Assembly (NCBI GenBank): GCA_000934665.2
Contig: JYFJ02003126.1
Span: 1-46,110, forward strand
Length of the DNA stretch: 46,110 nucleotides
Source: Catajapyx aquilonaris
Taxonomy: Eukaryota
Direction of reading: 5' to 3'
This document shows, piece after piece, positions 559 to 43,619 of the stretch. The stretch's first letter is position 1, and each line of letters starts with the position of its first letter. A program made the translations under genes and the position numbers. A model generated the notes under the pieces. That model was not told where the DNA came from, did no database searches, and saw nothing but the letters and a program-made list of their open reading frames with translations.

Positions 559-3500
559 ATTAGAAGGGTTTTCCAGACATGGTGGAATACATGAGGGGCT
601 GTATAAGTGGCCGATATTTAGTTCCTTTATTAGAAACTATTTTCAGCATTCGTAAAATTCAGGCAGTCACTCTTAAGGTCGAGGATAGACGTCAAGCATC
701 AGAGCCATGTGTTAAACTTTTCTTACGTACTTGGTGAGACATTTACTGATGTGTGGCATCTTAAGGTAATGAAAACCAGAACATCCTATCTTTAATAGTA
801 ACCACACATGAGCATTTTTTCAAAACCATTTCAAGCACACTTTTTTTGCTTGATGTGGTGAAGAAAAATGAGTGTAAATCCAAGATGGCAACAGTTTTAA
901 AGATTACGAAAGGAGTTTCGAGTAAGTCAGTATTAAGGCCACCTATGATGAAAATATTAAAAATTAACAAAATAGTCGAGCAACCACTTAGTATAAAATT
1001 GGGCAATTTCACATGGAATACCTTAGTGAATTCCCCAGGGTGGTTAATGCAACTGAAATTGCACCCAAGACAGATCCGGAAATGACCCAACTCCGCACGA
1101 GATGGAAGGGGGGAAAGCCCGCACTTGGGGTCATGCCTTGCAGTATGAGTTTTTATTATGCAAACTTCCGGTGTTAGTCAAGAGCATACATTATTCCTTA
1201 CAATCATCGTGAGGGAAAGCAGTGAACTGTGACTGTAATGGGTCCCAGATTCCCCAGAAATTTCACCATAATGGCATTTTGCTTGGTCATGATGACACTT
1301 TTAAAGTTGTTGTTGTTGTCATGTGTATTAGAAACCTGTGGTGCATGAAATTTTTTTGCATAACGAAATTATTCTCGTACAGATTGATCTTGCTCCTTGT
1401 CGTAGGCGGAAATGTTTGGGCTCCACACAAATGGGTGTTATTAAATATCTTGCAAGTGATGTCAGTAATGGTCGATGATTTTTGTATGCCTTTGTGACTG
1501 TTGTGCAATAATGATATATTATGGGCAAATTAGTTGAATGTGAGAAGCATGTTCTACAGTGCAGACAATGGGTCCAAATATTTCAAATGCTGAGTTCTGA
1601 GCCATGGCAGATCATTTTTTGCACGTTCAGTTTCTAATAAATTAGCAAAATTTGCACTGATCACTCTTCTGGTGTACAGGCTCAAATGCAACCTCACAGG
1701 GTGAGTCAAAACTAGCTTGGAAAAAATGGGGTTGAACCATTGACCTTGGATAGAGTCAAAATGGGATGATCTTGAACTCAAAATTTAATTGTTACCTGGA
1801 GATTGAAGGGATGCCTCTGTAAAATTGGGAAGAAATAAGTACTCGTTAAGCAGTGCACTGTAAAAGAACATTGCTGAGGGAAAAAGGGAATAATGTTGAT
1901 TGTTGTGTCCGATTAAGAATGCTGGTGCTTAATTATTGACAGTGTGACTTACTGATATTTTCAGACAAAAGCATCACAGACGGCTACCACAAAATGGTGG
2001 GACACCTTGGAGGAACCTCACTTACCACCTCTCAACAATTCAACAAGATGGGCGCTGGCAAAGGTGTTGCTTCCTAATGGGACTGCAATGAGTGTGTCGC
2101 AGCTGAGTGAGGCGACATGAGTGGGACTACTGGTCTCCGTCGAATGGAACTGGCCATTACCTGTGACATGAAACTTCAGCTTGGGGTGACAATGGTGATT
2201 AGCATCATCCATCAATGCACAGGTACGGTGTCTTAGCGTGTCAATGTTTCTTTCAGGTGAAAGTTGCTGTAATTTACTGTAGCAATATCATTACCATGTG
2301 CTAAGGAATTGACGGCTAGGGACTTATTAACTGCAACAATCAGTCAGGGGTACAATGGACTAGTGCTTATTCCACAGGCCAGCCAATTGGGAGGACTTGG
2401 ATTTTGGTAGTGTAGTGGAAGATTTTGAAGTGTGGTACTTGCTGGGCACTCGACAGCTGTTACAGGGTGGTATTCAGCCACAGTGGATGATGTGACGAGG
2501 GAGGGAGGGAGACAGTTGATGATGTAATCACGCCTTAGCTTTAGTTCTGACTAGGCCATTTTTTGAAGTTTCAACATCTGATTGATGCTCTTTTTTTTCT
2601 GAAGTATTTCTTGCCTGAGTGCTGCATGTGCACAGGAAGTTGACTTTTATCACATTACACCATCTACCACTAATTTTCTTTCCACTTTTTGAGACGTATG
2701 CAGCTGCACTTTCATGTAAAGTTAATTAATCCCTGTTGCATGATGGCCACAGGGATTGAGGCTTTACGAGACCAATTCAGCTGCTAGTTTTGGCAATTTA
2801 TAGTACATAGATAATTACGGAAAATGCTCATTGTTCATGTTTCACAGGCAAGTAAAATTTGGTGCACAATAGAGGAGGCAAATACTGAAAATGCATTGAG
2901 ATGAGACTGTATTGCATATACTGATGAGACTGTATTGCATATACCATTGCATTAACTTGCCCCATTATTCCTGCATGGGCTGTCAACTTTGGCAGGGCTT
3001 GACTGTGCATGCAGGGCTTTATTACTTACAACAAACAGCAAAGGCTGGTAGGAGTGGTCCAAGAGTAACAACTTTAGTAAAGGGATCAGTATCATTATTA
3101 TTTTCATTAGAGTGCTTCATACGTAGGTGCTGCAAAAAACCTGTACTGGTAGATTGTCCTCATGTCCATGCCAACCAAGGGCCTGACTGGTGGAGTTAGG
3201 TTGTTGCCTGCATGCAGTGTTGTGAAGCATACCTTGGATTTTTCCAAGGTCAAATGAGCCAGGGGCCATAGGGTTCATGCGTAGGATGTTTGTGACGTAC
3301 AAAATTTCTGGAACGAAATGAACACAGTTTGGGCTACATTTTTTAAGCAAGGAAACTGTCATGATAATAATTATTATTGTAATTTATATTTATAATTTTT
3401 GGAATAGGGTTTTATTGGCACTTTTTCTGTTGTGGTGAATATGTGAAGACTGAAAATTAATGCAGCCTCTCTTCTTTTCAGATTTCCAAGGACTGACCAA

Positions 3501-3712
3501 CATGTCATCACATCTGGGTCCATTGAACCATTTTTTCCCCTATGGTGAGCCGGCAGACATGCCATGCCCTGCCGGCTTCACCTCACGGACAAATGTCCCC
3601 TGACTCGCATCGGCCTCCAAACCTATCCTGTCCCCTGCTCTTTTCCCTCCAAAAACCTTCAAGGCCAGAGTCGGCCAACTCTGGCTCGACCTCCACAAGG
3701 TCCGCGCCTTGG

Positions 3713-3722
3713 CTATAAAAAA
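3713..3722 (+). promoter_or_regulatory. TATA-box-like CTATAAAAAA inside the loop of an 11-bp GC-rich inverted repeat
   Basis: CCGCGCCTTGG (3702-3712) / CCAAGGCGCGG (3729-3739) flank CTATAAAAAAGCAGCA; pyrimidine-rich Inr-like CACTCTCACTTC about 30 nt downstream. Confidence 0.4.
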
Positions 3723-3821
3723 GCAGCACCAAGGCGCGGGCACTCTCACTTCATCTGCAGCCTTCAACCAGGAACGACCAACCACCGAGCTCCGTAGCAG
3801 GCAGCAGCACTTCAGACAACC

Positions 3822-3837
3822 GGTCCTTTTCAGGACC
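3822..3837 (+). terminator. Histone mRNA 3' stem-loop consensus, copy 1
   Basis: GGTCCT-TTTC-AGGACC, 6-bp stem and 4-nt loop, with A/C-rich flanks (ACAACC...AACC); matches the metazoan replication-dependent histone stem-loop. Confidence 0.8.
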
Positions 3838-3849
3838 AACCTTACAAAC

Positions 3850-3865
3850 GGCCCTTTTCAGGGCC
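3850..3865 (+). terminator. Histone mRNA 3' stem-loop consensus, copy 2
   Basis: GGCCCT-TTTC-AGGGCC with ACAAAC...AACA flanks; purine-rich AGTAAAGGG about 13 nt downstream (possible histone downstream element). Confidence 0.8.
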
Positions 3866-4299
3866 AACACGAGCATCAGTAAAGGGTCACCAAACCCCTA
3901 CTTTTTTTTGGGTGCTTTATTACAATAAGTTGCAAGCAATCTCACCAGCATATTGACTACTGCCAGTATGCTTGCCCTATTCAATATAGTAATATTTGCT
4001 TGGAAACAAAGCGAGGGGTTCGTAAAAAAAAAAGCACACAAGTATCATGGAGCAGCATACCAACCTTGCTCCATGACTCACATGTGACTATTGACAAAGC
4101 CAACGTTCCCGCCCTTGACTTGTATGGAAGGACCTGGTGGACGGCATGAGGAGGAGGCCTGTGGGAAAGAGGGAAGTGAAGGGCATCAATCCCCCAACCA
4201 TCAAGAGATCCCTTGCGGGGTACTGGCGGGGACAACGTGAGGGTGGCAGTTGGGAAGGACACCCATGGGCTTGGTTGCCGCCATCATTTGAGATGACTA

Positions 4300-4480
4300 G
4301 AAGTCCTCTTTTCTGTCTGTGTGAGGATACAAAATTATCCAAGAACAAGTCATGTGGGAATTTCACTTGGGCTGGTTGGTTGTGTTGTTTCCTTTGCTGG
4401 GCAAAATTCTCACAGGAATTATTTTGTGTGCGCTGGTGCAGAAAAACAAGTTGAATGAGATTTGGACATGACCTTTGCAT
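4300..4480 (-). mobile_element. Possible errantivirus/F-type envelope fragment ending at a furin site
   Basis: ...LDNFVSSHRQKRGLL: an RxKR-GL motif like gypsy env and baculovirus F cleavage sites; only the motif supports the call. Confidence 0.3.
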
Positions 4481-4778
4481 GTCAGGCTCGTTGGTTGTGT
4501 TGTTTACTTTTTATCTCGCTAGACGACCAAACTTTTTTCTATAGTTGCAAGACTAGTAACTGCATTAAGTGCAACACATGTAATAAGCAGACTTGATAAT
4601 TTACTCCAGCCCAGTAGTAGTCATTTCACATGAAGGTGATCCTTCGCATCACATTTCGACAGGTGCTATTGTATTAAGTTGGGGGTTACATTGTTGCAAC
4701 CTCACGAACAAGTGTCATCCAAAATGGTGTCCAAAGCAAAACAGGTGTCCTACAGTTTCCTCTGGTAATTTGCTAATA

Positions 4779-5326
4779 CAGTAGATTCCCGATACCTCGA
4801 AATTCTCGATAAGTCGAAGAAAATCTTGGACGTGGACGATTCTCCATATACTGTAATGCAAATTGCATTCCGATAACTTGAGTGTGTATAACTCGTTTTT
4901 CTCGATAAGTCGAATACATTTTGTGAACTCTGCAGCACTTTCGCTGTTAATAAGTCGAATTCTGTCAGCACCAGGGAATTTCCAAGTTGAGAAAGGCAGT
5001 TGAGCCATCTTTTTCGTGCCATCCGCGCGGAGCAGCTCCCAGCCACCCAACCTCCACCCCACCACCCAAAATTCCCCCTCCGGAGTGGTCACAAATGCCC
5101 TAGGATCGCTGTGGCTTCACCTGGCACGGGAGGGTGTACTCAAAACGGCTACCTTTTTCTTTACGAAGATTGCACGTCTAGCGGTCACTTGCAATCGTGG
5201 CCCAATAGCGCGATGCATACTGTAGGTGTTTAATTTGTGTGGGTGCTGTTTTCCCCACCATATTCGATAAGTCGAATTTTTTTTTTGGTCGGTCCCATGG
5301 TGGTTCGAGTTATCGGGATTCGACTG
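4779..5326. mobile_element. pogo/Tigger-type (Tc1/mariner) MITE
   Basis: Imperfect TIRs TA|CAGTAGATTCCCGATACCTCGAA and TTCGAGTTATCGGGATTCGACTG; internal repeats of (TCG)ATAAGTCGAA near 4806, 4902, 4950 and 5264; right-hand TA not preserved. Confidence 0.75.
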
Positions 5327-5329
5327 CCA

Positions 5330-5491
5330 CATCTCCACCACTGTTGATGGCCCACTTGGATGTGGTGGCCCCTGGTCTGCAGCCAAGCGTCAAGTTCAGT
5401 GTCTCGTATAATGGTGCCATGTTGCGGCCCATGCCACTCACTGGGTTGGCTGTCCTGGCCTTTGAATAGGCAGCTTTGAGTGCCATCCACC
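5330..5491 (-). mobile_element. Myb/SANT-like (trihelix) exon typical of PIF/Harbinger ORF2
   Basis: WMALKAAYSKARTANPVSGMGRNMAPLYETLNLTLGCRP, preceded by the splice acceptor TATTTTAG|G. Confidence 0.7.
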
Positions 5492-5944
5492 TAAAATATA
5501 GAACAAGAATCACTGAATGAAACTACTTGAAAATTTCCCATTGAGACGTTGGGTTCATTAAGCATGAGTAATAAAATCATGTACTGCTCCCCCTGACAGG
5601 TAGTTTGCCCTTGGAAGCTATTGTTGTACTGTTGGGCTTACAAGACTGTTAGCTGCATGTGCATTATGCTAGTGTATCACATACCATTTGAAGCATTTCT
5701 CACGACAGTGCCCAACCACAGTAGGGACGGCCTTTCTCTTATTCTGCAGAGCTTCCTCCAAGTCTTGGCTGGGTCTACTACGTTTCCTCGTAACTGATTT
5801 GTTTGCCTTGCACAGGCCCTCGGCTACACGTGACTTGAAAACAAACAAGGGCAAGTTGGCTACTTTCGGCGCATTGTTTTGCTGCTGGACCCTCCCTAAA
5901 CAAAAACCATGCATTGACCACTGATAAATCCACCAAATGAGTGA

Positions 5945-6600
5945 TACCTTTTTCCTCTGTTCAATCAGTGCGAAGTCTCTGTCTAAGCTGTGCCCCGTAG
6001 TCATGAACTTCTGTTCTATGCTTGTAAAGAAGCGCTTCTGCTCAAGTAGAACGAAGACACACAGCATCCTCCAGTTGTTGTTTTGGCCAACACACCTGTC
6101 TGACCACACGATCAGTTTTCTTTCCTCATGTGGTTGTAGCGGGCAGTACTTGTTCGTGATGTACTTCAGCAAGCAAGATGCAATTTCAGCTGGCCTTCCA
6201 TTCGTCTCGTGCCAAACACAAATTGTACTAGTGTCGTTCCACAATCACGTATTCCATAGTTGTACGTACTATACAACCTCTGATAGAATACCCTAGAATG
6301 TGTAAGTTGTGGACAGAGAAGTACCTGCTGCATGTCTACGCAAAGTACAATGACATTGTCATTATCTCTAGTAATATCGATATCAGCAGCCAGTTGATGG
6401 TACGCTTTCTCTGCTTTTCTGTGATGTAGTTCCGATTGCTGAAGGATTGCAGGTCATGCGGGTCCGTCTTTATTCTGCAGTTGCATGAAAAGTTTGTCGC
6501 ATGTGGAACAAGTGTCGGTCCTGGGTTGACCAAATCGCTACTTGAATTCAGAATTGAAGATATCTCGGTAGATGCAAAACTTTTGGTAACGCATGCACTT
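5945..6600 (-). mobile_element. Sola1-type transposase core fragment (frameshifted)
   Basis: Motifs FGQPRTDTCSTCD, VDMQQVLLCP, WSDRCVGQNNN and GHS..DRDFALIE in the expected order. Confidence 0.8.
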
Positions 6601-7139
6601 GCTGCAGATCAAACTGTCATTGTCATATCTGCGAAGTGCAGGCCATCGATAAGACGCTGTTGACATTGTGCTGCCAAATTCTGGCCCAGCAGGAAATGGC
6701 ACATATTTATCTGCACAACCTACCTTGCTTTTTTCGCCTCTTATCGTCTTCCTTTTTCGGGTCATTTAGGGGCAGTGATGGCATGGCCATCCTACACCTC
6801 TTTCCCATGGCGCTTTCGAGTAGGGGAAACCCAACAAGCACTGCAGCCTGTGGGTCCCTGCAAAACCACAAAATGAAATTGCTGGTTGCTTTATAGGCAA
6901 AGAGAGTTCCTGTGGCATCTACAAAATTATTGGGCACAATCACACAATCATATCATGCAATGCTTCAACATGGCATAAAGAGTAAATAATACAATATTAC
7001 ATGCAGTACAGCAAGACGTATTTAAGTTACATCAGAGCTGAAATTCTTCACGACAGCCAGCCATGAAGATTATGTATCAACGACTCATCCCAGTATATAT
7101 GAATTCATCCTGTCTCAGAAGCAAGGGTCACCTTACCTG

Positions 7140-7438
7140 GCACCCTCCTCGTCGAAAATCGTTCTTAACGACTTTGCTGGCTCATTCTCCGCTCGTCTCT
7201 TGCAAGAGGCGAGGAAAGCCCGCTTACTTGCCTCAGTTGGAACCGAATCGAGATTGTGGCCGGTTTGGCCTGCTGGCACGAAAGTGCCATCTAAAAGGAG
7301 ATGTGCCGCCCCTCCACAATCACGATTTATGCACCTCAAGTAAGTTGTGCCATTCGTAAGGGACACCTTGTTCTTTCTGTAAAGGAACCCTTCAAAAACG
7401 TATTGGTGCGAACCACGTCGCAGGCCTTCCTGTTTCAT
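7140..7438 (-). mobile_element. FLYWCH-type zinc finger fragment (MULE-associated)
   Basis: RRGSHQYVFEGFLYRKNK...TYLRCINRDCGG...GHN. Confidence 0.75.
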
Positions 7439-7579
7439 ATCGAAGCTGAAAGAGAGGGAGCAGAAAATCAGATCAGTATGTGTTCGCCTGACATTGTGAA
7501 ATAACGGTGAAAAATTGTTGAGGTGACGGGTAAGTCAGGCTAGTGTGGAATGTCGCTTACTATACTTACTTTGATTACT

Positions 7580-7880
7580 ATATTTCATGTCCTTCATAAC
7601 TCCCCTGTACACCTCATAACTGCATTTGACCTCTGCGCCTTCATCTGTGTCCTTAAAATCATTGTACATGGACCCTATGCTTAGTTCAGGTAGCAGATAA
7701 CGCCGACACGGGGCATGTTCGCGGCGATAATGGGATACAGCCGGTTTGTACTTCATGATATGGCTTCTAATGGCATCTTTGTTGATTAGTGCACCACCTC
7801 TGAAGCGTCCTCGTTGGTCTCGACCTGGCGCGCCAGTGTGAGGGTCAACAGTTTTGAAGGTTTCCATTATGATGCTTGTA
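7580..7880 (-). mobile_element. Sola1-type transposase fragment
   Basis: DQRG...IRSHI....SHYRR....RYLLPELSIGSMY. Confidence 0.75.
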
Positions 7881-7884
7881 TTTC

Positions 7885-8641
7885 CGTAGCCAATAGTTCC
7901 TCCGGGGCGTCGGACAGTGATGAGTCGAGGTGAAATTGTTTCGACTATAACTTTCGTGCCGTTCACCAAGCGGTCACCGAAATTGAGGTTGCGAATGATG
8001 AGCGCAACGCAGCCCTTCTTCATTGTCAGCACGTGATCAGGGACACCTTTTCCCGTGGCCAGGTGAAGGGTTTCCACTTGTATGTCGAAAGCCTCTGCAT
8101 CCTCTGTTTCGTCCATGTATTCGGCGCTGTACAGCCGATGAGCGTCTCCATCCAGCATATTCAGAACACGCTCGTTGACATCTCTCACATTGCAGTTATG
8201 AGTGCAGAGAACAACCCTCTTTGCAACTTCGTTGGGATCCATCAGCACGTGAGGTGGAAACACGAAACCGATGAGATCGCCAACTGACGTGCAAGTCTTG
8301 AGACCTTCGAGGGGAATTAACGATTGCGTGTCCCTTCCCTCGCCAAAAAGACGTTCAGACACCTTCCCCTCCCCGACCCGAAGCAGGAACGACGAGTAGG
8401 CCCCATCTCCTCTCGTTCGCTGTGCTGACGTCAACCGGAAGACCTTCATTGTTGGCCACAAGAAGGAAGCCCTGAAGGACACCGCAATGACATCGGAAGG
8501 GGTCCTGGCGTCAGGAACGACAGGCGGGATCTGCCTGAAGTCACCGGCGAAAATGACAATTTTGCCGCCGAAAGGTTCTCTAGACTGCATGAGATCCCTT
8601 AGTGACCTGTCCAGAATCTCCAGTAGAAACCTGTGCGCCAT
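7885..8641 (-). mobile_element. Helitron PIF1-family helicase fragment
   Basis: LDRSLRDLM..PFGGKIVIFAGDFRQIPPVV and PDHVLTMKKGCVALIIRNLNFGDRLVNGT. Confidence 0.9.
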
Positions 8642-13779: not shown

Positions 13780-14900
13780 ACAGGAGGGAGGCCAACCGCA
13801 TCCTTCACTGGTTGTCGAGGTTATGGACGCCCACATCTTTGGTCTTCTTTCGGGTGGCAAGTATCCTAGTCACCACCGTCACCAAACCCAGGATTCCCAA
13901 CACGACTCTGACGATAATCTGCAATACCCACACCTTTACAAAAGCTAGAATTTTATTCCTCTTGAATCCAGCGAGGGCGAACCGAGGACGCAGATACGAA
14001 TTTCATTCACTTCCAAAGTTTCCATCTCCTACATCAAATGTATGTGCTGCACGAGCACTTTCAATTACCGGAACATACTTATTGTATTACTTGTTTAGGT
14101 CATAATCGTTGCACTTGAACTCGTGACTGACACACTGACCGAATCCCTCCAGAGCCAGGTCAACCTGATTGCCGTACTGTGCCAGTTTGCTTAGATCATA
14201 GCGAGATTTGAGTTGGAATGTCCACCTGGTGTATGTGCTCAGCAGATAGTCCCCACGACCCAGTTTTGAATACACTCCATTAGTGATCACTGGTGGTCCG
14301 ATGTCATTCTTTTCTTGACTGTATTCGATCTATTGATTCTCGCTAGTTGTTATTATGTAAAATGACTCGTCGCATCTGAAGTATGAATTCCCATGGTGAG
14401 TCATGCTGACTTCCACTCTCGCCTCAATTAGCCCAAGGCTTATGTGATCCACCACCCACTGGTTTTTGGAGTAAAATTTAAGTCCAACCGCATCCAACTT
14501 TTCTGAATGGATGCCCAAAAACCCACATATTTGCAATGTACATGACAAGATGGTCAGAAATGATGCCCATATGTCATAGATGCCGAAACATGAATGTAAC
14601 CTCAGCAAAGTTGGCTCTGCTGTTTTCTTCCGACTCTTCACTCTTTTAATTGCTACAATCGATGCCTTTGCATTTTATGTGTTTGCTATGCAAAGTATTG
14701 AAGGTTAATTCGTCTGGTTTTGGTCCTCTCTTTCCTGCAGTCGTATTCTTAGATTCGGCCGTCTCTTTACACTGCAGGTCTAGGTTGGCCTGCATCTGTG
14801 CTAGGTTCGTGCCCATGTTGTGCAAAAACATTGGTTATACGTCCTTGTATTCAGTCAAGTGTCATTGGTTTCTTTGGGTACATTGTTCAGAAGCCTGCAA
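13780..14900 (-). pseudogene. Endogenous rhabdovirus-like glycoprotein G1, copy A (internally deleted)
   Basis: TNVFAQH...YDCRK fusion-loop-like region, Cys-rich body, C-terminal TM segment VKVWVLQIIVRVVLGILGLVTVV followed by RKK; stops and frameshifts. Confidence 0.6.
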
Positions 14901-15639
14901 CAACTGATGTATCTCTTCGAAGGGACTATAATATCCTAGTGTAGTATGTAATGGTAGGAGAAACAAATATTATTCGTTTATGTATTTTCTTACCATGTCA
15001 TGCACCAGGAAAGAGGAAAGTTCTGCAAAAATTCGCACGCAATTTTTCCAAAATGTGAGGGGCAGTATATTGTACAGGGTCTCAATGACAAAGTATCCTT
15101 CCTATAATATGAAGATGTGTTGTATTTGACCAGTAAATTAATGCATATTACATGCAGGCAGTGTTAGTTACTGCTAGGAATTTGATTCTCAATTCCTGAA
15201 TGTAATGACACAAGGTTTCCATTATTATTAATAAATAATACGTAATACTACATGCTTGTGAGAAGAATGGCCTATCAATGGGCTGGCTCACCCACTGCTG
15301 TTCAATCCAGGGCCTACTGCCGATGATGTGGTTGTCGATGATGGACTTATTTATTGATGAGATTGGACCACAAGTTTGTGTTACGTGGTCTTAGAGCCAA
15401 GGGCCCTCCTTGTGTATTACTCTGCGGGACAACACGTATTCGATGTCCGTAGAGTGAGACGACACCAAAATGAGGCCAGGCCACTCCTTGTCCTGACTCT
15501 TCTCTAAGGGAAAAGCAGTCCTAAGCTCTGGGTTCAGAGCAAAATCCTGGTTGTACGACAATGGTGTTGGTGTGAGAGGCAGATAGTATGGAGATGAACC
15601 CCCTGCACTTGGACACCGTGACACCACCTGAAGTGTTGT

Positions 15640-16130
15640 AATTCGGGTTTGTCCTATTGTTATGAATTCACACATGGCAGGAATAGTGACTTGCTTTGTC
15701 CACAACACAGCATAGGTTTTTCTCTGATCCCCTGATTTCTCTTCCCTCAAAAATGGCACCTTTTCACCATCTGGCATCACTATGGCCCTATCCGTAAGAG
15801 AAATGTTCAGGTCAAAACTCTGCATGAGTTCAAGTCCTATTAGACCAACACATGGCAAACCCATACTTTCCCTGGGCACCCATATTTCAGCAGACCTGAC
15901 CTTATTCCCTATACGAAAGTTGACAACTGCTTTCCCCGCCATTTTTATGGCCTTTCTAGTCACGCCGACTAAATTGAGAGTGTCATCCGGTGTCAAGGTT
16001 GGAACACTATCCAATTGTTTCCAAGCCTCAATGTCTATCAAAGTGCACCTAGATCCCGTGTCACAAAGCATCTTCTGCCTAATCCCATTTATCTCCACCG
16101 CTACAATATTTTGAAACAACGACAGCATTT
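15640..16130 (-). mobile_element. Gypsy aspartic protease fragment
   Basis: VEINGIRQKMLCDTGSRCTLI...GLIGLELM within ORF 15391-16287. Confidence 0.85.
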
Positions 16131-18043
16131 CAAGAGGCCTTGACTCAACTTTCTCCAAACCATTGTTCCTCACATCTTCCGAGTGATGTTCCCTACTTTG
16201 ACATGGCCTCGGAGCCATAGGAGGAGGGTGCGTATACTCAAAACTAGGAACCTGCACATGTGTTTGTGTCAGTTTTGTCATTCCCACAACTGGAGAAACT
16301 TGAGGTGATGGTGTGTTAGGTGTATCGATCGGTGTTTCTTGCCTGTGATTGTCCGGTATCTTAGCCCTACTCCCCTTTAATCCCCGGTTGAATAAGGAGG
16401 GCAGTCCTCGTTTCCGATCTAGACACTACTGCCATCACTTGTCCAGAAGAGCAGTGCCCACTGTACCTAGGACGTCCTCCCTGTTGAAACCGAAGCTGAG
16501 GCACGTAACTCGTACCAATAGCTTTCGCCCCTACCTTGAGCTGTCACATCGCTCATTTCTGTCATGTTTCCTGGTGGTCCAGCAGAGTATACCTGCCTAA
16601 TGGGTGACTTTACATATGCTTCGTCTTACTCTTCCCTCCCTTCTTTTCTTGTGTACGTTTAGCTTGGCTCTGGCTGCCGCCGTCTCCGGTCACAGCCTTC
16701 TGCTTGCGTGGGCATACCAGCTGGTAGGTCCTGTGTCTCCTAACCCCATAGCGTATTATACGACGGTCTCTTCCCCTTGCATTCTTCACAGCGGTTATTG
16801 CGGAGCTCCTTTCTTCCTCTCTGGTCCTCCCGGAGTCCCTATGGCAACCGACGCAGTAGCCTATTAAGAACTCGTATGTGCAGCTTCACTTTGTAGTCAC
16901 CGTCAAACTCTGCACGAATGGCGTCGATGCACGTGGGTATGTCCCTTGAGGGAACTTTCCTGATTGGTGTTTGATTACCACCCTTGATGGTACTTTTCGG
17001 CTCGTAAGTGGTGTAGACCGGAATGCCAGCGGGGATTCCCTTCTTCCCGGTGCTCGCATTGTTACGTCGTTTTTTTTTTTTTACTATTAGTTTTACTAGC
17101 GGTATTTTTTTACTAATTCGCCCCCTTTAATATCACATGTGGAATAGTTGAAGCACCCAGAAGTGATTAAGTCAGTTTTTCTCCAAATTGCGTTTCTGGC
17201 TTTTTTTGTGGTCCTATTGTATGGAACTATTTTACAGGAGGGAGGCCAGCTGCCTCCTTCACTGGTTGTCGAGGTTATGGACGCCCACATCTTTGGCCTT
17301 CTTTCGGGTGGCAAGTATCCTAGTCACCACCGTCACCAAACCCAGGATTCCCAACACGACTCTGACGATAATCTGCAGTACCCACACCTTTACAAAAGCT
17401 AGAATTTCATTCCTCTTGAATCCAGCGAGGGCGAACCGAGGACGCAGATACGAATTTCATTCACTTCCAAAGTTTCCATTTCCTACATCAAATGTATGTG
17501 CTGCACCAGCACTTTCAATTACCGGAACATACTTATTGTAGTACTTGTTTAGGTCATAATCGTTGCACTTGAACTCGTGACTGACACACTGACCGAATCC
17601 CTCCAGAGCCAGGTCAACCTGATTGCCGTACTGTGCCAGTTTGCTTAGATCATAGCGAGATTTGAGTTGGAATGTCCACCTGGTGCATGTGCTCAGCAGA
17701 TAGTCCCCACGACCCAGTTTTGAATACACTCCATTAGTGATCACTGGTGGTCCGTTGTCATTCTTTTCGTGACTGTATTCGATCTATTGATTCTCGCTAG
17801 TTATTATGTAAAATGACTCGTCGCATCTGAAGTATGAATTCCCGTGGTGAGTCATGCTGACTTCCACTCTCGCCTCAATTAGCCCAAGGCTTGTGAGCCA
17901 CCACCGACTGGTTTTTGGAGTAAAATTTAAGTCCAACTGCATCTAACTTATCTTAATGGATGCCCAAAAACCCACATGTTTGCAATGTACATGACAAGAT
18001 AGTCAGAAATGATGCCCATATGCCATAGATGCTGAAACATTAA

Positions 18044-19055
18044 AGGGACACTCCACTCAAAATGCAAGTTGGGCTCTAAAAATCGGGCAAAAAATCCTGA
18101 TTCCGAAGGTGCAATCGGTTTTTTTCTACGCGGAACAGAAAAGCCAGGACGAGGCGTTAAAGACTCAGAATTTGCGACGTCTGCTAATGAGCTGCCCCGC
18201 CAGCCCAGTCCGCCACCGCCGTGAGCGCCGCCACCGGGCACTAGGCGAAAGTGATACAGTGCTGAAAGTCGGGTCGGGTCAAGAGGTGGCGGGATAAACC
18301 TGTGGGACGGACCAAAGATGGCGCGGACCATGGCGTGGATCAAGATCATCATCATCATCATTTACTTCACGGCAAAATAATCCCATGGAGGGGTAGCCAG
18401 CGGAGTACAGGTTGCCCCTGTCCCCCTCGTATGACCTACAAAATGACACTGGGAGACTGCTGTCAACAACACCGCCCGTCAGTGACCAGCTGCCCGTCTG
18501 AACAGTCGCAAGTTCTGGGTGTTCCTGCTCCATCATGGCCAATACACCGTCGCCTGGGAGACTGCTGTCAACAACACCGCCCGGTGAGATAGAGTCTGCC
18601 TGGGGGATTGGTTGTTTACGTCGCCCCTGTCAACACTCCTGTCAGTGACCAGCTGCCCGTCTGAACAGTCGCAAGTTCTGGGTGTTCCTGCTCCATCATG
18701 GCCAATACACCGTCGCCTCCGTTCAGCTCACTAGTTGTTTACATTGTATGAGTGTACGTTTTGTGTATATGTGTTCATATCATTTATATCATATTCATCC
18801 TTTTCATTAACCCTCTGCGTGGCCTGACCATCCACCAGAGTGGATCAAGATGGCGCAAGAATATCCAAATTTCTGCCCAGTCCCGGGCAGTCCCGGAGGA
18901 GGCGCTGCTGTTTTGCGCCAGATTCGAATTGCCTAACTTTGACGGCTCGCTCTGGCCTTACCGTTCGTCTCTCAGAAAAACTGCTGATACACTCGGAATC
19001 AGGATTTCTTGCCCGATTTTTAGAGCCCAACTTGCATTTTGAGTGGAGTGTCCCT
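18044..19055. mobile_element. Non-autonomous Kolobok-type element (TTAA TSD)
   Basis: TTAA|AGGGACACTCCACTCAAAATGC...GTGTCCCT|TTAA; about 63-bp TIRs with one mismatch; the homologous site in G1 copy A (~14591) is empty. Confidence 0.85.
18449..18718. repeat. Internal tandem duplication (~107-bp unit) in the Kolobok element
   Basis: CTGGGAGACTGCTGTCAACAACACCGCCC and GTCAGTGACCAGCTG...ACACCGTCGCC each occur twice. Confidence 0.85.
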
Positions 19056-19499
19056 TTAATGTAACCTCAGCAAAGTTGGCTGTGCTGTTTTCTTCCGACT
19101 CTTCACTCTTTTAATTGCTACAATCGATGCCTTTGCAATTAAGGCAGATCGCCGAGCATGGCATACCAGCACGTTTGCAGCCGCAATTTCTAATGCAACC
19201 TCTCGTACGACTCTCACTTCACCAGACGTAATTATGTCATTGATTGTAAATACGACATTGTCAATAACTACATTATTTACCACCAGGCCTGTTTCTCCCA
19301 TGAGCTCCTCACTTATGCCTGCGAGAGTTACCGTTGAAATCCTATCCCGTAGGTGCTGGATGGGTCTTTACACCACACACATTGTTCTTGATGATTCACA
19401 TAAAAAGTCTCCTCATCCACGAAACAGACCTGCCGTAGGAGAGTTTCATTTGTTCGGCGTGCCCAGTGTGCGAAGTCTTTAATGGGAAGTTTCGCTATG

Positions 19500-19620
19500 C
19501 CCCTCCAGAAGCCGTTTCTCCCTCCCTCTGATGCCGCTTATGCAAGTGGAACCTCTCAACAATTGCCGACGGCTTCGGCACATAGTGCTTGTTGAGCGCT
19601 GCTATCATCGTATTTCCGCC
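19500..19620 (-). mobile_element. Gypsy gag fragment
   Basis: ALNKHYVPKPSAIVERFHLHKRHQREGET. Confidence 0.75.
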
Positions 19621-19860
19621 TACTGGAACTTGCATAATATCTGCAGGAGACTCACTGGTTTGAGGCGCATTCTGGATACCAGATGGCCCAGCTACAGGTC
19701 CTGCTAAGTGCGCCAATGAAGCTCCGTGATGTAGAGCTAGTAGGATTGTCGAGTGAGCAATTCAGTTGTGGTTCGGGCAATTGCCTTTCTCTTGTGCAGA
19801 CGCTATGAACTCATGTTCCGGGAAAATATTTGGATTGCAGGAATTGAAATAGGAATTGCA

Positions 19861-20452
19861 ACTTAAAATTTACTCCAAAAACCAGTCGGTGGTGGCTCAC
19901 ATAAGCCTTGGGTTAATTGAGGCGAGAGTGGAAGTCAGCATGACTCACCATGGGAATTCATACTTCAGATGCGACGAGTCATTTTACATAATAACAACTA
20001 GCGAGAATCAATAGATCGAATACAGTCAAGAAAAGGATGACAACGGACCACCAGTGATCACTAATGGAATGTATTCAAAACTGGGTCGTGGGGACTATCT
20101 GCTGAGCACATACACCAGGTGGACATTCCAACTCAAATCTCGCTATGATCTAAGCAAATTGGCACAGTACAGCAATCAGGTTGACCTGGCTCTGGAGGGA
20201 TTCGGTCAGTGTGTCAGTAACGAGTTCAAGTGCAACGATTATCACCTAAACAAGTACTACAATAAGTATGTTCCGGTAAATTGAACGTGCTCGTGCAGCA
20301 CATACATTTGATGTAGGAGATGGAAACTTTGGACGTGAATGAAATTCGTATCTGCGTCCTCGGTTCGCCCTCGCTGGATTCATGAGGATAAAATTCTAGC
20401 TTTTGTAAAGGTGTGGGTACTGCATATTATCGTCAGAGGCGTGTTGGGATCC
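19861..20452 (+). repeat. Inverted duplicate of the G1 C-terminal region (copy C)
   Basis: Reverse complement of ~13891-14483 and ~17345-17933; ORF 20054-20284 matches ORFs 14087-14290 and 17457-17744. Confidence 0.95.
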
Positions 20453-21339
20453 CTTACTTCGTTGTTACCACCAAAAAGAAATCACCCATGTTCATATTGG
20501 GGCTGTCACTGGAAAAATACATGTCGAGGTATTTGATGATGCGCCAGTGTTTTTTAATTCTTGGGCGCAATTAATGGGTGTCTCGAGGTGCAAATTACTT
20601 TGCTACTGGCATGTAGATTGTGCCTGGCAGGGAGCACCAATTTCCACTCGCAATTTAGCCACTTATAAGTTCATGGCCGGAGAATGCTCCTCGTGAAACC
20701 TTTTATCGTGCAGACCGATTAGTCGACGTAGCGATCAACAAAAGAGTTGCTCTTTCCTTGAAAAGTCAAAAGCTGTGTCCATTGATACGCTGAACAAATT
20801 CATTCCTTCAGGCCCTTCTGAATTTCATCCTTATAGTAACACGAGCCACAGCATGAAGCAACTGGTTTTGCCTTTTTCATGTCAGGAAATTGCATTTTAT
20901 GTGTTTGCTATGCGAAGTGTGAGTGGCTCACTGAACAAACAACTTGGCAGGTTGGAAGTCCAGGAGTGGCCTCCACTCTTAGTTGTGCTGAAGTGGCAAG
21001 ATTGAAATAAAATGTGTGGTTGATTCAAAACAAACTCTAATTATTATTCAGTTCCTTGTTACATTTGAACTTAGTACAATGGTCAATGGGTGTAATTCTC
21101 TTCACACTCTTACGCTCGCTCTTCCTTCCTCACGGAAGCGCCACCTTGAGTTGAGGGTCGCCATCTTGAAACTTGGGTCTCGACGCAACTAATTATTTGG
21201 GTGGGGCATTACATCTGTTTGTATTAAGGTGACTGGATCACCATCGCAGCCTACCCAATGCCACTTCGGCACACCCCTGAAGTTTCCTACCCTGCCTCTT
21301 GGCGGAGATGAGCGATTTTGAAATAAAAAGAGGGTCAAG

Positions 21340-21772
21340 ATGTCGTACATGCTCCCTCACCTCCACAACGGATGGCAGGTCGACCAGGCCATCCTGTCTG
21401 AGGAGGACAGGGTCGTGGTGATCCGGTATGGACACGACTGGGATCCAACCTGCATGAAGATGGACGAGGTGCTGTACTCCATCGCTGAGAAGGTGAAGGA
21501 GTTTGCCGTCATCTTCCTGGTGGACATCACAGAAGTGCCGGACTTCAACAAAATGTACGAGCTGTACGACCCATGCACGGTCATGTTCTCCTTCCGCAAC
21601 AAGCACATCATGATCGATCTTGGCACTGGAAACAACAATAAGATCAACTGGCCCTTGGAGGACAAGCAGGAAATGATCGACATTGTCGAGACCGTCTATC
21701 GAGGAGCGAGAAAAGGTCGAGGTCTGGTCGTGTCCCCGAAAGACTACTCCACAAAGTACAGACTACAGATAC
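21340..21772 (+). pseudogene. TXNL4A: Intronless Dim1/TXNL4A (U5 snRNP 15-kDa) copy, probable retrocopy, stop codon lost
   Basis: MSYMLPHLHNGWQVDQAIL...SPKDYSTKYR at full length; substitutions at normally invariant sites (IRYG, KEFAVIF, MFSF); a TACAGA-C-TACAGA duplication shifts the end so the ORF runs on to 21945. Confidence 0.9.
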
Positions 21773-22209
21773 TGGGCGTGTGCAAGCATGACCTCACCTC
21801 CGCCATGGGTTGGCGTGGCATTGCAGTACCGCCAGGATCGGCCCACCTCTACTTCCAGGAGGAGAGGACACAAACAAATCAAAAAACAATCGAAAAACCA
21901 CCCTCCCAGCATCCCAGGGAATGGTTTAATCCGAATTCGGATTAAAATGACTCCTTTCTCGGCCAAATTGTCTCAAATAAATCCGGGCCTGATTTACAAG
22001 TTATTTCCTCTGGTTTGGTCCTCCATTTCCTGCAGTCGTATTCTGAGATTCGGCCGTCTCTGTACACTGCAGGTCTAGGTTCGCCTGCATCTGTGCTAGG
22101 TTCGTGCCGATGTTGTGCAAAAACATTGGTTAGGCTGGCAGTACTCCTGTTGACATGAGAGGCCCTCGTTCCACACACTTCAAAATGGCCGCCTTGGCGC
22201 CCACTATCT

Positions 22210-37835: not shown

Positions 37836-38410
37836 CAAGGTGCAGTACCTTACAGTATGTCAAAAATCGTAATTATGACTGCACTTATCGATCCATGTTC
37901 CCACTGCTGTCCAGGAAGACAGTGTCGCCACTGCTCTCTAAGGTGTGCACCCGGCGCATTAGAGGGGAACACATTGTGACCGCAAAGTCTTCTCCTCCCC
38001 CTAGACCATCTATGAATTCACAGCTGCCACCTGCTGTGCTCTTCTGATATTGCAGGACATGGTCCTTCAATGTATCCATCATCGCTGTTACAGTATAATT
38101 GATATGTTAGTTCTAGAAAAGAGAAAGGCATCTCTGCAGTGTACTCACATTCTGGTGTGCCAAACTGCCCTTCATAGTATGACTGCCTCAGTCGGAACAC
38201 CCACTTTATGTCGGGAACGTGGCGCCTGTCCTGGCTCAAGATAAGGTATTCCTCAGCGCTCATGTCTGCTTTTTCTCTGTAGTGCTGCTTTAATTGGCAC
38301 AGTGCCTTGCTTGGGCTTAGGCCAGTCTGAAAATACTGGAGCAGCATCTCCTTGAATTGGCCACAGATGAGGTGCTTTTTAGTAAGAGGTATTCCGTCAA
38401 TATTCATCAT
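37836..38410 (-). mobile_element. MULE-type transposase fragment
   Basis: YFQTGLSPSKAL and MCSPLMRRVH...VFLDSSGNMDR. Confidence 0.7.
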
Positions 38411-38899
38411 GACCTCTAGCTTGTAAAATGCAGAAACTACGTGACAATTGTCATACGCTTAGGTGTTACAATTCCATTGTGTAAGCCAGTGTTTGTAATG
38501 TCCTGTGTTAAGTACCAATGCATCATTCACAGAAACTTCCGATATATCTGGATAGTTGTGCTGTGGATCGTTGTAGTCGGAAGATATTGATAACGACGAA
38601 GTCCCATGCCCTGATTCTTCTTGAGAAGATGATGGCAGAGTTTGCAAATGATATCCCAGTTCCAAAGGGAATTCCTTTGGACATAGAAGGACGGCTCACA
38701 GGGCCTCGGTTAGAACCCGTTGAGTGGCACCTGGCTTGTGGACGAAGCGCCAGTCTGCAAATCTTGTGTAGCGACCGAAGGCCACGACTTCCCTTGGGCG
38801 GGGAGGCCATGCAGGCGAGCGTCCCTGGTCGTCTTCTTCCTGCACTGCGGGTGCACCTTGGCGCTTCCCATCGTGAGGGTGGGCAGGCCGTTGGTAAAT

Positions 38900-39745
38900 G
38901 CCCACCTCACCCCCAGTCTCCCAACTTGGTCTAGGAGCAGGGTTTTCGCTGTCCGAACCGCCCTCTCCACCTGGCCGTTGGATCGCGGATAGTTGGGGCT
39001 GGTGCGGATGTGCGAGAACGCCGAGAAATTTCACTCCTTGGCGAACGTCGTAAATTCCGCGCCGTTGAACGGTCGGTGGCCTTCCGTCCGATACGACCAC
39101 CACCGGTACGCCGTGGCGGGCAAATACCGTCTTCAGCGCCGGGATAGCCACCTCCGCCGCCAGGCTGTGGATCAGCTCCACGTATTTAGAGTAGAAGTCC
39201 ACCACTTCCATGTAGTGTGCGTTCTTGTAGTCCAGGAAGTCGACCGCAACCCTCCCATGGCGTGTACGGGGTGGGGGTGCGGCATGTATGGCTCCGGTCC
39301 GTTGATCGCCTGGAAAGAGTCTTTGCTCACAAAATTTTGACTAAAAACCCTCTGCAGGAAAAACCATAACACGTTTTTTTTACACAAAAAAAAGGAAAGA
39401 GACATTGGTCACAAAATTTTTACAAAAAAACAAAAAAAAAATGTGAGAGATGGTTGCTCGAGGCGGCAGAGGAACCACCTTGCAGCAAACTTGAAGGCGC
39501 AGGCGGGAGGGAGATCCAGAGCATTCTTGGCAGGTCCGCACCATTTCTTTGATCTGTGATTGCAGGCCTGGCCAGTAGATGCAGCTTCTCGCCCTCTCTC
39601 TCTCTCTGGTGTTTACTATCCCCTGATGCGCTGAATGCAGCCTCACCAGCATCTCCTCCTGGAACCCGCGCGGGATGACGATCAGGTCCTGGCGGAGAAC
39701 GAGGCCCTCCCACAGCTCCAGCTCGTCCCTGACCGGCCAGAAGCA
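38900..39745 (-). mobile_element. Gypsy integrase (zinc finger plus core), interrupted by an A-rich insert at ~39320-39490
   Basis: LHSAHQGI...IYWPGL...CQEC; VVDFYSKY...FARHGVP..VVSDG; NGQVERAVRTAK. Confidence 0.9.
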
Positions 39746-40179
39746 CCCAAAATGGTCTTGGTTTAGCGCTTTAACAGCCCTGACAATGGTTATTCGTTTA
39801 TTGCATTGTTTGAAACGATCACACTGACTTTTCCTAACAAGTCCCACTCAGCGACAATGCGTGGAAGTGCATTGAATTTTATTTAGGATTACTATCATAC
39901 ACATACAGTATACTGATACAACTTAGTCAGCTATTAACGGGGTTATTCCAGACACTGTCTCATCTGTCTCGTCTCCTTTATACAGAAGTTCCAAAACAAA
40001 GATATTTCCTTTGGAACAACACCTTCCAGAAGGACATGCATAGGATCAAATAGGAAGTATTTTGTTAAGGAAATGTAGGTGATATCATGTAAAAATGTCA
40101 TTCCTTTTAAACAGTACTCAACTGATTACTGGATCTTTTCTTTCTCATTGGTGCATGCTTCCAGCTTATGTGCTTGCTG

Positions 40180-40360
40180 CCATTGGATTCCTCGTCCAGC
40201 TCCAACTGTGTGTACGCCTCCGCCAGGTCCATTTTTGAGAAAATTGTAGCTCCCCCCAGGGTTGCCAGCAATTCCCCTACCGTTGGCAAGGTGTACTGGT
40301 CCACCACAAGGGCCTTGTTTACTGTGGCCTTGTGGTCACCGCAGATACGAATTCCCTTCA
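40180..40360 (-). mobile_element. Gypsy reverse transcriptase fragment
   Basis: IRICGDHKATVN...YTLP...FSKMDLAEAYTQL. Confidence 0.9.
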
Positions 40361-40799
40361 AGGTCACTCTGCAAGTTGGATTGCCCCTAGCATAGGGTGG
40401 GACTGTGTGTAACTTTGCACGATCTACGAACTAATTTGACTTTACGGCTGAAGCATTCCTTAAATCCCGAAATGTCGAAGCAGGCAAGGGTGTCCCCAAT
40501 GTTTTTATTTTTTTAAAATTTTGTAAATTTTTATTTTCATTGCCCCTGTGGGCTTTACATAGCCTTTGGGGGGAGACAAGCCGGTGGACAAAATTACAAG
40601 AGAAAGGGTATCCCCAATGTATGAATACGGGCATCATAAAAAATCTCTCCTCACCACTACTTGTTTGAAAGACTATTTCTTAAGAGCTTAGGGTCAACAC
40701 AGTTTGGAGGAAATTGGCCAAGAGTGTTTCTTTGGACTCATTGGTTTTTAGACTGGATGCTGCTCCAACTGCCAAAAGACGATTGTTTTGCAGCGTGGA

Positions 40800-40945
40800 C
40801 CGCAGGTGGGGTGGTACATTCCAAGTAGAAAAGCATGACTTTTCCCTTTCCACCTCTTTTCATACCTAGGGCATTACCTAACTCTACCTCATCATTGTAC
40901 AGTGATAGTGCCAGAGCAGTCTTGTCATGTTCACTCCAAATTTCA
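40800..40945 (-). mobile_element. EnSpm/CACTA-like transposase fragment
   Basis: LSLYNDEVELGNALG....K...FY. Confidence 0.65.
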
Positions 40946-40949
40946 TGGC

Positions 40950-41330
40950 ATTTCTCTTCATTCACCGTGAGGCCCGCTTCTTGGATACGTCTCAGTACAT
41001 CACTCAGTCGGCTGTCGTGTATCTCCTGAGTTTCCCCGTACATCAATAAGTCGTCCATATGACAGACTACACCGTGTAGGCCAGCCAGGATCGCTGACAA
41101 TTTTCTTTTGGGAATGCTCAGGTGTGCTGCATATCCGGAACGGAAGGCGTAAGAATTTCAACCTCCCGAAAGGGCTTATAAAAGTAGTTAACCTTGACGA
41201 TTCTTCTGACAAGGGCACTTGCCAAAAACCACTGTTGCAGTCGATTTTTGACAATACTTTAGCCCCCTTCAGCTGAGCCAACGTGTGCTCTACCGCTGGT
41301 AGTGGGTGATGCTCCCTCTTGGGTGACTCC
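40950..41330 (-). mobile_element. Gypsy reverse transcriptase fragment (second family)
   Basis: SKIDCNSGFWQV...TTFISPFG...RLPF and CHMDDLL. Confidence 0.9.
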
Positions 41331-42172
41331 TTGTACTGTTGGTACTCAAATGCTTCGGCCACACCTGCAATTACAGGTGACTCTTGTATACACAGGATGA
41401 TTGCTGGTTTGTCTCTGCGATCTGAATTGACTTGGATTCAATCTTTAAACTGGTATGGGACAGGTTATTACCACAACTAATGAAAATATGATACATAATT
41501 GGAATTATCCTCCCAGATATTTATTTTCTTTATGGCACCCTCTTCTTGTGGAATTCTGTTTCATTATCAATTTGAATTTTCCTGAGCTCCATATCATAGC
41601 ATGGCGCTCTTTGCTCTCCTCTATGGCCGCCTCTCACATCAACCTCCTCTTCTTCACCTGCATTTCATGGATGGCTTTTTCCTGTCTTGTTTGTTTGTTT
41701 GTTTGTTTGTTCGTAGTATGCAATTTTGGTTGCTGCCAGGGCGGAGAGGCGGTTGGCAGCCACAGCCCGAGGGGTTGGTCCAGGCTTGTCAGGATGACGG
41801 CGCCGAGTCCAGGGGTTCCTGCGGCTATTTCTCCCTGGTACTACTTTGCTGCCGAAAAAAAGCGTAGCTGCTGCTAGAAGGGGAAGCAGCTGGACGGAGG
41901 TGCTCCAAGAAAAGATTGGATTAGGAGTGGATGATGGCAGGAGACAAGGGTGAAAGTGNTGTGCAGAAACCATACATTTGGAACAGCTGCATTTCTCAAA
42001 TTAACCAGTGTGTTCTTTACGTTTAGCAAAACCATGCTATCTTCTCAAGTAATAACACAAAATGATTTCATTTTTGATGTTGATCGCATGTATGCTAATT
42101 TGCCTCAAGAGTCTGAGAACAATGAATTGCTAGTTAATTATGAGATGACTTCTCCTATACTTATCCCAGAAG

Positions 42173-43027: not shown

Positions 43028-43169
43028 CCTTGATACACTTTAGGGAGGCTGGTGTCCGGTGCTCGCAGGGTGAGGTAGGGAGGTATACACAGGTTGGGGG
43101 AAGGGAAAAAAAGTGGTCGAGGGTCAGTTGGTCACCCCCCAGGAAAACTACCCCAGGAGTGGGGGGAAC

Positions 43170-43418
43170 AATTATGCGGACTCAAAGGACCTTATCTCTG
43201 AAACCCAAGCCGGATTTAGAACATGTAAATCCTGCACGAATTTAATTTTTATATTTAACGGACTAATTCATAAATACATAAACAAAAAGAAATCCTTCAA
43301 CTATCTATTTGTGTTACTCAGAGATCTAACAAGATTCGGTAACCACAATTTTCTAATTCAATCATTACTTAACATGGGAATCGGAAAGTTTTTAAAAATA
43401 GTGATTACGTCACTGTGA
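43170..43418 (+). mobile_element. LINE reverse transcriptase fragment (plus strand)
   Basis: LISETQAGFRTCKSCTNLIF. Confidence 0.8.
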
Positions 43419-43619
43419 CATAATACTGTGAAGGTAGCTGTACGAAATTGAGAGTGTCTTTCCTATTTTGCAACATACATTTTGGAAATAAAAATATCTA
43501 CGTGTATACTGTATCTATCAAGCTCCACATTTTTCTGATCATTTCAAGAATAAAGCAGGCGATGGGAATTATTACGCATTTCGGTGCATAAGCTATCCGA
43601 AATGATTCTAATGGATCTA

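Follow-up and report, generated by a model that had tools for sequence, protein, structure and literature searches.

The subject of this analysis is a mobile-element insertion of 354 bp at positions 3541-3894 (+ strand) of contig JYFJ02003126.1 from Catajapyx aquilonaris (assembly GCA_000934665.2), positions 1-46,110 of which were analysed and are called the window below. The insertion is one copy of a high-copy, non-coding interspersed repeat, and near its right end it carries two hairpins of the kind that ends animal histone messages, followed by a purine box. We suggest that it is a gene-less mobile-element shell whose transcript would be ended by the histone pathway, most likely an internally deleted inverted-repeat transposon, a proposal to which we would give about an even chance. 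In a larger context, the element suggests that mobile DNA is able to borrow the histone message pathway.

The two hairpins lie on the plus strand at 3822-3837 (GGTCCTTTTCAGGACC; GGTCCT, TTTC, AGGACC) and 3850-3865 (GGCCCTTTTCAGGGCC; GGCCCT, TTTC, AGGGCC), 28 nt from start to start and separated by a 12-nt spacer. Each has a 6-bp stem with GG at its base and a TTTC loop, and they differ solely at the third stem pair, T-A in the first and C-G in the second, a compensatory change; an earlier note on this DNA had described two canonical stem-loops spaced and differing in just this way, and both the sequence and the uniqueness of the pattern matches bear it out. SLBP requires a GG base, uridines in the loop and adenines on the 5′ side, and the flanks here (CAACC and AACCT around stem-loop 1, CAAAC and AACAC around stem-loop 2) are A-rich 5′ of the stems and have AAC at the 3′ side. 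Both hairpins match the histone consensus pattern GGYYCTTTTMAGRRCC exactly at every specified position, and they are the only two matches on either strand of the 46,110 bases when up to one mismatch is allowed; shuffled sequence gave a mean of 0.09 matches per shuffle, and two or more in 0 of 100 shuffles. A looser hairpin scan of the window added one dissimilar match, at 23892. A 701-base search with the Rfam Histone3 model (RF00032), which the earlier note had suggested, scored both stem-loops, with 30.4 bits (E 1.2e-6) at 3845-3889 and 18.4 bits (E 0.036) at 3817-3842, both under the gathering score of 34 bits, and an Rfam scan of the whole window at the gathering threshold returned no match. 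When 3745-3894 is folded as RNA, both stem-loops are present in the minimum free energy and centroid structures (z = -2.35; 4 of 200 shuffles as good).

The purine box, AAAGGG at 3881-3886 (+), trails stem-loop 2 only, 15 nt past its stem (best 8-nt window 7/8 purines), and is a candidate histone downstream element, the site with which U7 would pair. The core with which U7 pairs consists of purines (in many animals AAAGAG) and lies a fixed 11-12 nt beyond the cut; the box at 3881 fits the cleavage predicted at about 3869-3870, 4-5 nt past stem-loop 2. Neither AATAAA nor ATTAAA occurs in the element on either strand. Upstream, a TATA box of the RNA polymerase II type, TATAAAAA (3714-3721), would set a start about 30 nt further on, near 3745, followed by a leader of about 75 nt (3745-3821, +); the ATGs of the element are confined to 3542, 3559, 3564 and 3593, with none in 3596-3894, and the predicted leader is ATG-less. 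In the scheme that we envisage, SLBP would bind both predicted stem-loops and U7 would pair with AAAGGG at the distance usual for histone pre-mRNAs; since the purine box follows the second stem-loop alone, the mature RNA would terminate with both hairpins retained. Each copy would yield a capped RNA only some 125 nt long, with two SLBP sites and no poly(A) tail, and the histone-type ending would tie expression of the element to S phase. We speculate that two SLBP sites might offset a location outside the histone locus body. Use of SLBP and U7 by the element is plausible; the repeat, its boundaries, the duplicated target, the empty sites and the signals can be read from sequence, whereas transcription, processing, coupling to S phase and the class of element are inferred. 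The earlier note had considered an SLBP-binding non-coding RNA of about 100 nt, and such an RNA would be the expected product of each gene-less copy if it is transcribed from the TATA box; a further suggestion, that the stem-loops are a processing signal for a neighbouring gene cluster, is unsupported, nothing coding being found upstream on the plus strand inside the repeat.

The mobility of the unit was read directly from public contigs of C. aquilonaris aligned to 3200-4300. Three contig sets (X1-X3) share a DNA sample, possibly the one from which the assembly was made; X5 derives from a different sample, and since its contigs run across the ends of the element and the kind of run is unspecified, it is silent on expression. 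Against a depth of 20-42 for single-copy, zero-mismatch contigs of the flanks, contig depths in X1-X3 add up to 679-1,579 in the edge bin (3533-3569) and to 1,130-7,980 in the bins between 3570 and 3902, and drop to 52-65 in the one that follows. The rise over single copy between about 3541 and 3894 is 40- to 250-fold, and as summed contig depth is not copy number we put the copies only roughly, at about a hundred with at least 80% likeness. Other copies share the ends: their pieces have left ends at 3539-3543 and the loose end of one contig begins with the letters of 3541, while at 3894 nine contigs of X1 and six of X3 continue into DNA unlike the window, and the mutual agreement of these continuations is 0.44-0.49, so the flanks differ. 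The insertion is bracketed by CCCC at 3537-3540 and 3895-3898 (CCCCTA, 3537-3542 and 3895-3900, if the element is taken to start at 3543), and three contigs, which are paralogs of the flank, join 3524 to 3926, 3528 to 3923 and 3541 to 3923 without the element and with a single CCCCT site; these insertion-free contigs are diverged paralogs, not alleles. Because of the depth, the shared ends, the putative inverted termini described below, the duplicated CCCC/CCCCTA and the empty paralogous sites, 3541-3894 is a mobile-element insertion with a target-site duplication of 4-6 bp. No second copy was found in the window (blastn, word size 7), whose own LTR pairs and repeats are unrelated to the element. 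The DNA that received the insertion (3388-3540 and 3923-4087) is itself a low-copy repeat (depth 50-280), in whose paralogs a 13-nt stretch, GGGTGCTTTATTA, is absent and the T-run is not as long as in the window.

As to the suggestion that a mobile element or a virus has co-opted histone mRNA processing, the first half is favoured by the high copy number and defined ends of the block, by its duplicated target and empty paralogous sites, and by the transposon analogues discussed below; a virus is not indicated. A family-specific 44-mer across both stem-loops had no match in metagenome contigs and none in viral contigs.

The same contigs bear on two explanations that would leave the stem-loops with the host. 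The earlier note had considered that they are the 3′ tail of a decayed histone gene with a stem-loop duplicated locally, and canonical stem-loops, a TATA box and short UTR-like distances do recall a histone gene. We nevertheless reject this explanation as scarcely credible: the stem-loops belong to a dispersed repeat whose depth is 40-250 times that of single-copy DNA, whose ends are sharp and whose flanks are unrelated, and both are common to the repeat family, so that their duplication is not local. Nor does any frame give a histone, in agreement with the earlier note; 0 of 48 open reading frames (ORFs; 47 of the 50 ATG-started ORFs of at least 90 aa, plus one of 77 aa) matched a histone family in Pfam. 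The 77-aa ORF (3564-3797), correctly reported as stopping 24 nt ahead of the first stem, begins ahead of the TATA box and is no gene; we treat it as non-coding because 1-nt indels inside it differ among copies, because its stop is missing from most of the depth (3795 T>C), and because it matches no Pfam family and has no homologue among proteins of 42-135 aa.

The other explanation, which we regard as very improbable, is that the copies are a dispersed host gene family for a small SLBP-binding non-coding RNA, a regulator or sponge of histone mRNA metabolism. The TATA box, the predicted ATG-less transcript of about 125 nt with its two SLBP-type sites, and the high conservation of the 3′ part among copies would suit such a family; against it, the element has target duplications and putative inverted termini, sits inside another repeat, is missing from paralogous sites and is followed on the right by unlike flanks in up to nine contigs, and the length of the leader differs among copies and no Rfam family matches. 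Moreover, small-RNA genes that spread do not normally take their promoter along. A small-RNA gene of RNA polymerase III, with the TATA box and a T-run at 3902-3909 as its signals, was considered separately and rejected, since the shared repeat does not extend to the T-run and Rfam gave no family match.

Arrangements comparable to that of the window occur in other DNA. A generic pattern of two histone stem-loops 6-36 nt apart was matched by at least 120 metagenome loci (L001-L120) and by nothing in viral contigs. ORFs that stop 4-40 nt ahead of stem-loop 1 resemble the C-termini of transposases: the 249-aa ORF of L071 has 3,224 relatives, most of those listed about 356 aa long, many with Pfam DDE_3, some with a helix-turn-helix domain as well and some named transposase. 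With five of these relatives as queries, tblastn gave a same-strand match to the C-terminus of this DDE_3 transposase of about 356 aa in 90 of the 120 listed loci, ending -1 to 105 nt before stem-loop 1 in 88 of the 90 and 346 and 491 nt before it in the other two; nucleotide clustering placed 108 of the 120 in two large groups, which hold 89 of the 90 matches. Pfam was weak on 34 frames upstream of the stem-loops (DDE_3 at 21.1 and 18.6 bits, both sub-cut-off), and the identification as DDE_3 transposases rests on the relatives of L071 and on tblastn rather than on frame-wise Pfam. No histone was found by Pfam among 76 scanned frames upstream of the metagenome stem-loops, and no relatives of the transposase P0003 were found in viral contigs.

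L072 (358-1701) has a near full-length transposase gene, its stop and two stem-loops, all between 34-nt inverted repeats, and the loci of family A are deletion derivatives with long inverted repeats in which the last 45 or so codons and the stem-loops have been kept. In L011 (1869-2172, minus strand) the C-terminus of an IS1595/ISXO2-type transposase (PF12762, 28.0 bits against a cut-off of 27) precedes two stem-loops 8 nt apart; by its sequence, L011 represents a second transposon superfamily with a tandem histone stem-loop ending. At least seven purines in eight are found 5-35 nt past stem-loop 2 in 105 of 119 units (118 loci and the window's own), and an all-purine 8-nt window past stem-loop 2 in 58 of 119, versus 8 of 115 in a control region. 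In other DNA, then, transposon genes are followed by complete histone-type end signals. It is conceivable, and we put it forward tentatively, that several unrelated kinds of mobile element (the 354-bp family, and Tc1/mariner-type and IS1595-type elements in other animal-like DNA) took over the complete histone 3′-end signal, often as two stem-loops with a U7 box. Among the 120 listed loci we found no convincing analogue of a gene-less cassette running from TATA box to stem-loops, the three TATA matches (L062, L074, L089) being incidental, and the L071 protein has no significant likeness to the DDE_3 ORF of the window (E 0.28). Tandem stem-loops also follow some non-transposase ORFs: one of 222 aa with a P2RX7_C domain (L056 and L100), one of 266 aa with a TATA box, a Cys/His-rich tail and no Pfam family (L014), one of 310 aa (L007/L033, that of L007 without a Pfam family) and a basic one of 94 aa, again without a Pfam family (L118). 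All are intronless and end 10-70 nt before the stem-loops, and none is a histone by Pfam.

The 354-bp element has putative inverted termini. Its left terminal repeat, TATGGTGAGCC (3541-3551), is identical at 9 of 11 positions to the reverse complement of the right one, GGGTCACCAAA (3884-3894), a match short enough to have arisen by chance. Three further hairpins lie upstream of the histone-type pair, as the earlier note had stated and as a hairpin scan confirmed: terminal hairpin 1 (3544-3583, with core arms 3548-3556 and 3569-3577 that pair over 9 bp with no mismatch); hairpin 2 (3664-3685, with 11-nt arms 3664-3674 and 3675-3685, 91% paired); and hairpin 3 (3702-3739), a perfect 11-bp palindrome around the TATA box, whose arms 3702-3712 and 3729-3739 enclose CTATAAAAAAGCAGCA. 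The 5′ half (3541-3744) folds with z = -4.27, none of 200 shuffles being as good. Hairpins 2 and 3 vary among the other copies at positions that pair with each other (3671 T>C with 3678 A>G in hairpin 2; 3705 C>T with 3736 G>A in hairpin 3, in 3-5 contigs each), and since these positions vary together the two palindromes seem to be maintained, as DNA or as RNA. Variation elsewhere is concentrated upstream of the stem-loops. The counts from contigs cover the best 40 of 141 variant sites and the best 12 of 55 indels; of the 27 best-supported sites listed in the element, 26 fall at 3589-3795 and one at 3841, and none of the 27, nor any of the 12 indels, lies inside either stem-loop or in 3866-3894 (binomial P = 0.010 for at most one variant in 78/354 of the element length). 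The most variable zone is the part of the predicted leader at 3775-3816, where copies differ in length through a 40-nt insertion and small deletions and where loose ends cluster.

With five hairpins strung along the element rather than just two of histone type, with covarying pairs in hairpins 2 and 3, with both Rfam scores below the gathering threshold, and with multi-copy variants whose stem-loop is broken or single, one might suppose that the hairpins are the element's own copying signals, bound by protein or acting as single-stranded DNA or RNA, and that the histone likeness is convergence or a relic with no role for SLBP or U7. We think this unlikely. The 16-nt histone consensus is fully matched in both hairpins, where chance would give 0.09 per window for even one match, and it is accompanied by the appropriate flanks and by a purine box at the usual distance. 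The full set of signals recurs behind unrelated transposase genes, where 10 of the 20 metagenome loci tested pass the Histone3 gathering score, and in these analogues the signals lie in the 3′ untranslated region (UTR), 130-400 nt from the end of the element, and not at the terminus on which a transposase acts.

If the 354-bp element is, as we prefer, an inverted-repeat derivative, its promoter and leader would come from the left end of a transposon and its 3′ UTR from the right end, the interior having been deleted. We prefer this class because the inverted match sits at the exact shared ends, with TA and AA outside TG and CA, because the hyper-variable zone lies where the coding region would have been, and because the analogues, among which deletion derivatives are common, are DNA transposons. 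That the element is a solo long terminal repeat (LTR) is possible, if somewhat doubtful, and nearly as likely as its being an inverted-repeat deletion derivative. On that reading, 3541-3744, TATA box included, would correspond to U3, the stretch from about 3745 to the cleavage past stem-loop 2 to R, and the last 25 nt or so, which hold the purine box, to U5; as a corollary, the genomic RNA of the parent retrotransposon would have been ended by histone-type processing, not by polyadenylation. The unit is compact, at about 350 bp, with promoter and RNA-end signal in the same orientation, TG and CA stand two bases inside each shared boundary (TA-TG...CA-AA; TGGTGA...TCACCA), and the target duplication is of 4-6 bp. 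Covarying hairpins upstream of the TATA box are expected if U3 belongs to the 3′ UTR, a high-depth contig extends about 100 nt past 3894 as an internal region would, and the window and the genome are rich in LTR elements. Integrated LTRs, however, normally end exactly in TG/CA, and the TA and AA outside them are common to other copies of this element. Furthermore, there is no second copy in the 46 kb and no likeness to the window's own LTR pairs, the R and U5 of a 5′ LTR would carry both stem-loops and the purine box and so risk a cut about 125 nt from the start of the RNA, and all the analogues found are DNA transposons. Two other identities were rejected: a Helitron end (there is no TC...CTRR, and a target duplication is present) and membership of Tc1/mariner (the right flank is CC rather than TA, and tblastn gave no DDE_3 remnant).

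Several observations weigh against our reading of the element as a transposon shell served by the histone pathway. The unit holds no transposase remnant: tblastn with five metagenome DDE_3 transposases gave nothing better than E 7 in 3541-3894, and the best match, at E 0.22, lies elsewhere in the window. Nor does the element show a TA duplication, as Tc1/mariner elements do; the metagenome transposons are thus analogues and not relatives, and having been selected for two stem-loops they say nothing on how usual two are. Both stem-loops fall short of the Histone3 gathering score, and the count that argues for their conservation is partial, being drawn from the best-supported sites and indels. 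Hairpins 2 and 3, with their covarying pairs, precede the presumed start; should they function as RNA, the TATA box might not serve as promoter. One variant present in many copies (depth 422, X3) departs from the window sequence within stem-loop 1, goes on with letters like those of 3866-3890 with no intact 3′ arm, and runs on past 3894; copies with a broken stem-loop are therefore numerous, although a larger repeat may be carrying them along. In at least one copy stem-loop 1 is missing, at a joint from 3800 to 3845, and only one stem-loop is left.

With the 3′ end of animal replication-dependent histone mRNAs (RF00032, SLBP/U7) the element shares a 6-bp stem based on GG, a UUUC loop, an A-rich 5′ flank, an A/C 3′ flank, a purine box about 15 nt past the stem, the lack of a poly(A) signal and what would be a TATA-driven intronless unit. 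It differs in that its 354 bp include no histone or other coding sequence, in its two stem-loops 12 nt apart, in being dispersed, high-copy and mobile, and in Rfam scores (30.4 and 18.4) that do not reach 34. The metagenome DDE_3 transposons (L072, L071, L002, L019 and L051) likewise have two histone stem-loops and a purine box in sense orientation, and deletion derivatives that keep the stem-loops; they differ in having transposase sequence, long inverted repeats and stem-loops in a 3′ UTR 130-400 nt from the end. They have no sequence likeness to the 354-bp element and are an analogue, apparently unpublished, and not a known family. Miniature inverted-repeat derivatives and solo LTRs resemble the element, which at about 350 bp is of similar size, has putative short inverted termini and a target duplication of 4-6 bp, is present in many copies, and has kept a promoter and an RNA-end signal but no coding sequence, although its termini and duplication length match no known superfamily.

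One paper describes histone mRNAs as the only known non-polyadenylated cellular mRNAs (PMC4604434). Closest among published mobile elements are two cases. ENE triple helices have been described in plant and fungal transposon RNAs, from LTR elements and a hAT DNA transposon (PMC13541005), and they place at the 3′ end of a mobile-element transcript, as the 354-bp element would, an RNA-stability structure borrowed from, or parallel to, those of cellular and viral RNAs; ENEs clamp the poly(A) tail, whereas the signal of the 354-bp element would replace polyadenylation and add cell-cycle control. In human HERV1/LTR12, motifs like the histone downstream element are bound by U7 small nuclear RNA, and U7 represses LTR12 transcription via NF-Y (PMC11417402). 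There, too, mobile-element sequence is linked to the histone 3′-end machinery, through complementarity to the U7 5′ end; the abstract of that paper names no stem-loop or SLBP-dependent cleavage. A literature search covering neither most subscription journals nor Repbase Reports nor supplements brought up no publication in which a transposable element carries a histone stem-loop, and a 2026 preprint on the evolution of the histone 3′-end pathway makes no mention of transposons or of non-histone or tandem cases.

The wider interest of the element would lie in what it adds to the histone 3′-end pathway. It is taught that, of all animal mRNAs, histone messages alone end in a stem-loop and not in poly(A), and this ending couples them tightly to DNA replication. 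If transposons do make use of such an ending, the pathway has further clients, and transposon transcripts would be the first sizeable group of non-histone RNAs whose ends are made by SLBP and U7. Transposon messages would come and go with S phase, the time at which cut-and-paste elements can increase in number, and mobile DNA would have a simple route to expression in S phase only, with a sister chromatid present for repair. In such genomes SLBP and U7 would find something like a hundred additional sites away from the histone locus, which would bear on the sharing-out of limiting factors for histone mRNA processing, and from the gene-less copies, in their thousands, SLBP-binding RNA would be supplied at scattered places.

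The remainder of the window is rich in mobile-element debris, with matches to PIF1 helicase, DDE_3, RVT_1, an integrase zinc domain and an aspartyl protease. A second high-copy repeat, unrelated to the first, lies 200 nt downstream of it at 4088-4290, with summed depth up to 8,715 (X1), and overlaps ORFs at 4088-4480 (-) and 4146-4454 (+), both without a Pfam family. At 7133-8641 (-) a 368-aa ORF with PIF1 helicase and Pif1 2B domains, which is Helitron-like, adjoins a 101-aa ORF with a weak FLYWCH match. At 13780-20454, a 296-aa ORF with an aspartyl-protease domain sits among nested long repeats, both direct and inverted, whose arms reach 419 nt and are 97% alike. The region 37851-44660 is probably an LTR retrotransposon; its 238-nt direct repeats, 96% alike and 6,572 nt apart, stand around minus-strand integrase zinc-domain and reverse-transcriptase fragments, and these LTRs are unlike the 354-bp element. 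Finally, an uninterrupted 201-aa ORF at 21340-21945 (+) has a full DIM1 domain (E 2.8e-67) with a C-terminal extension of about 65 aa, and may be an intronless gene or a retrocopy.

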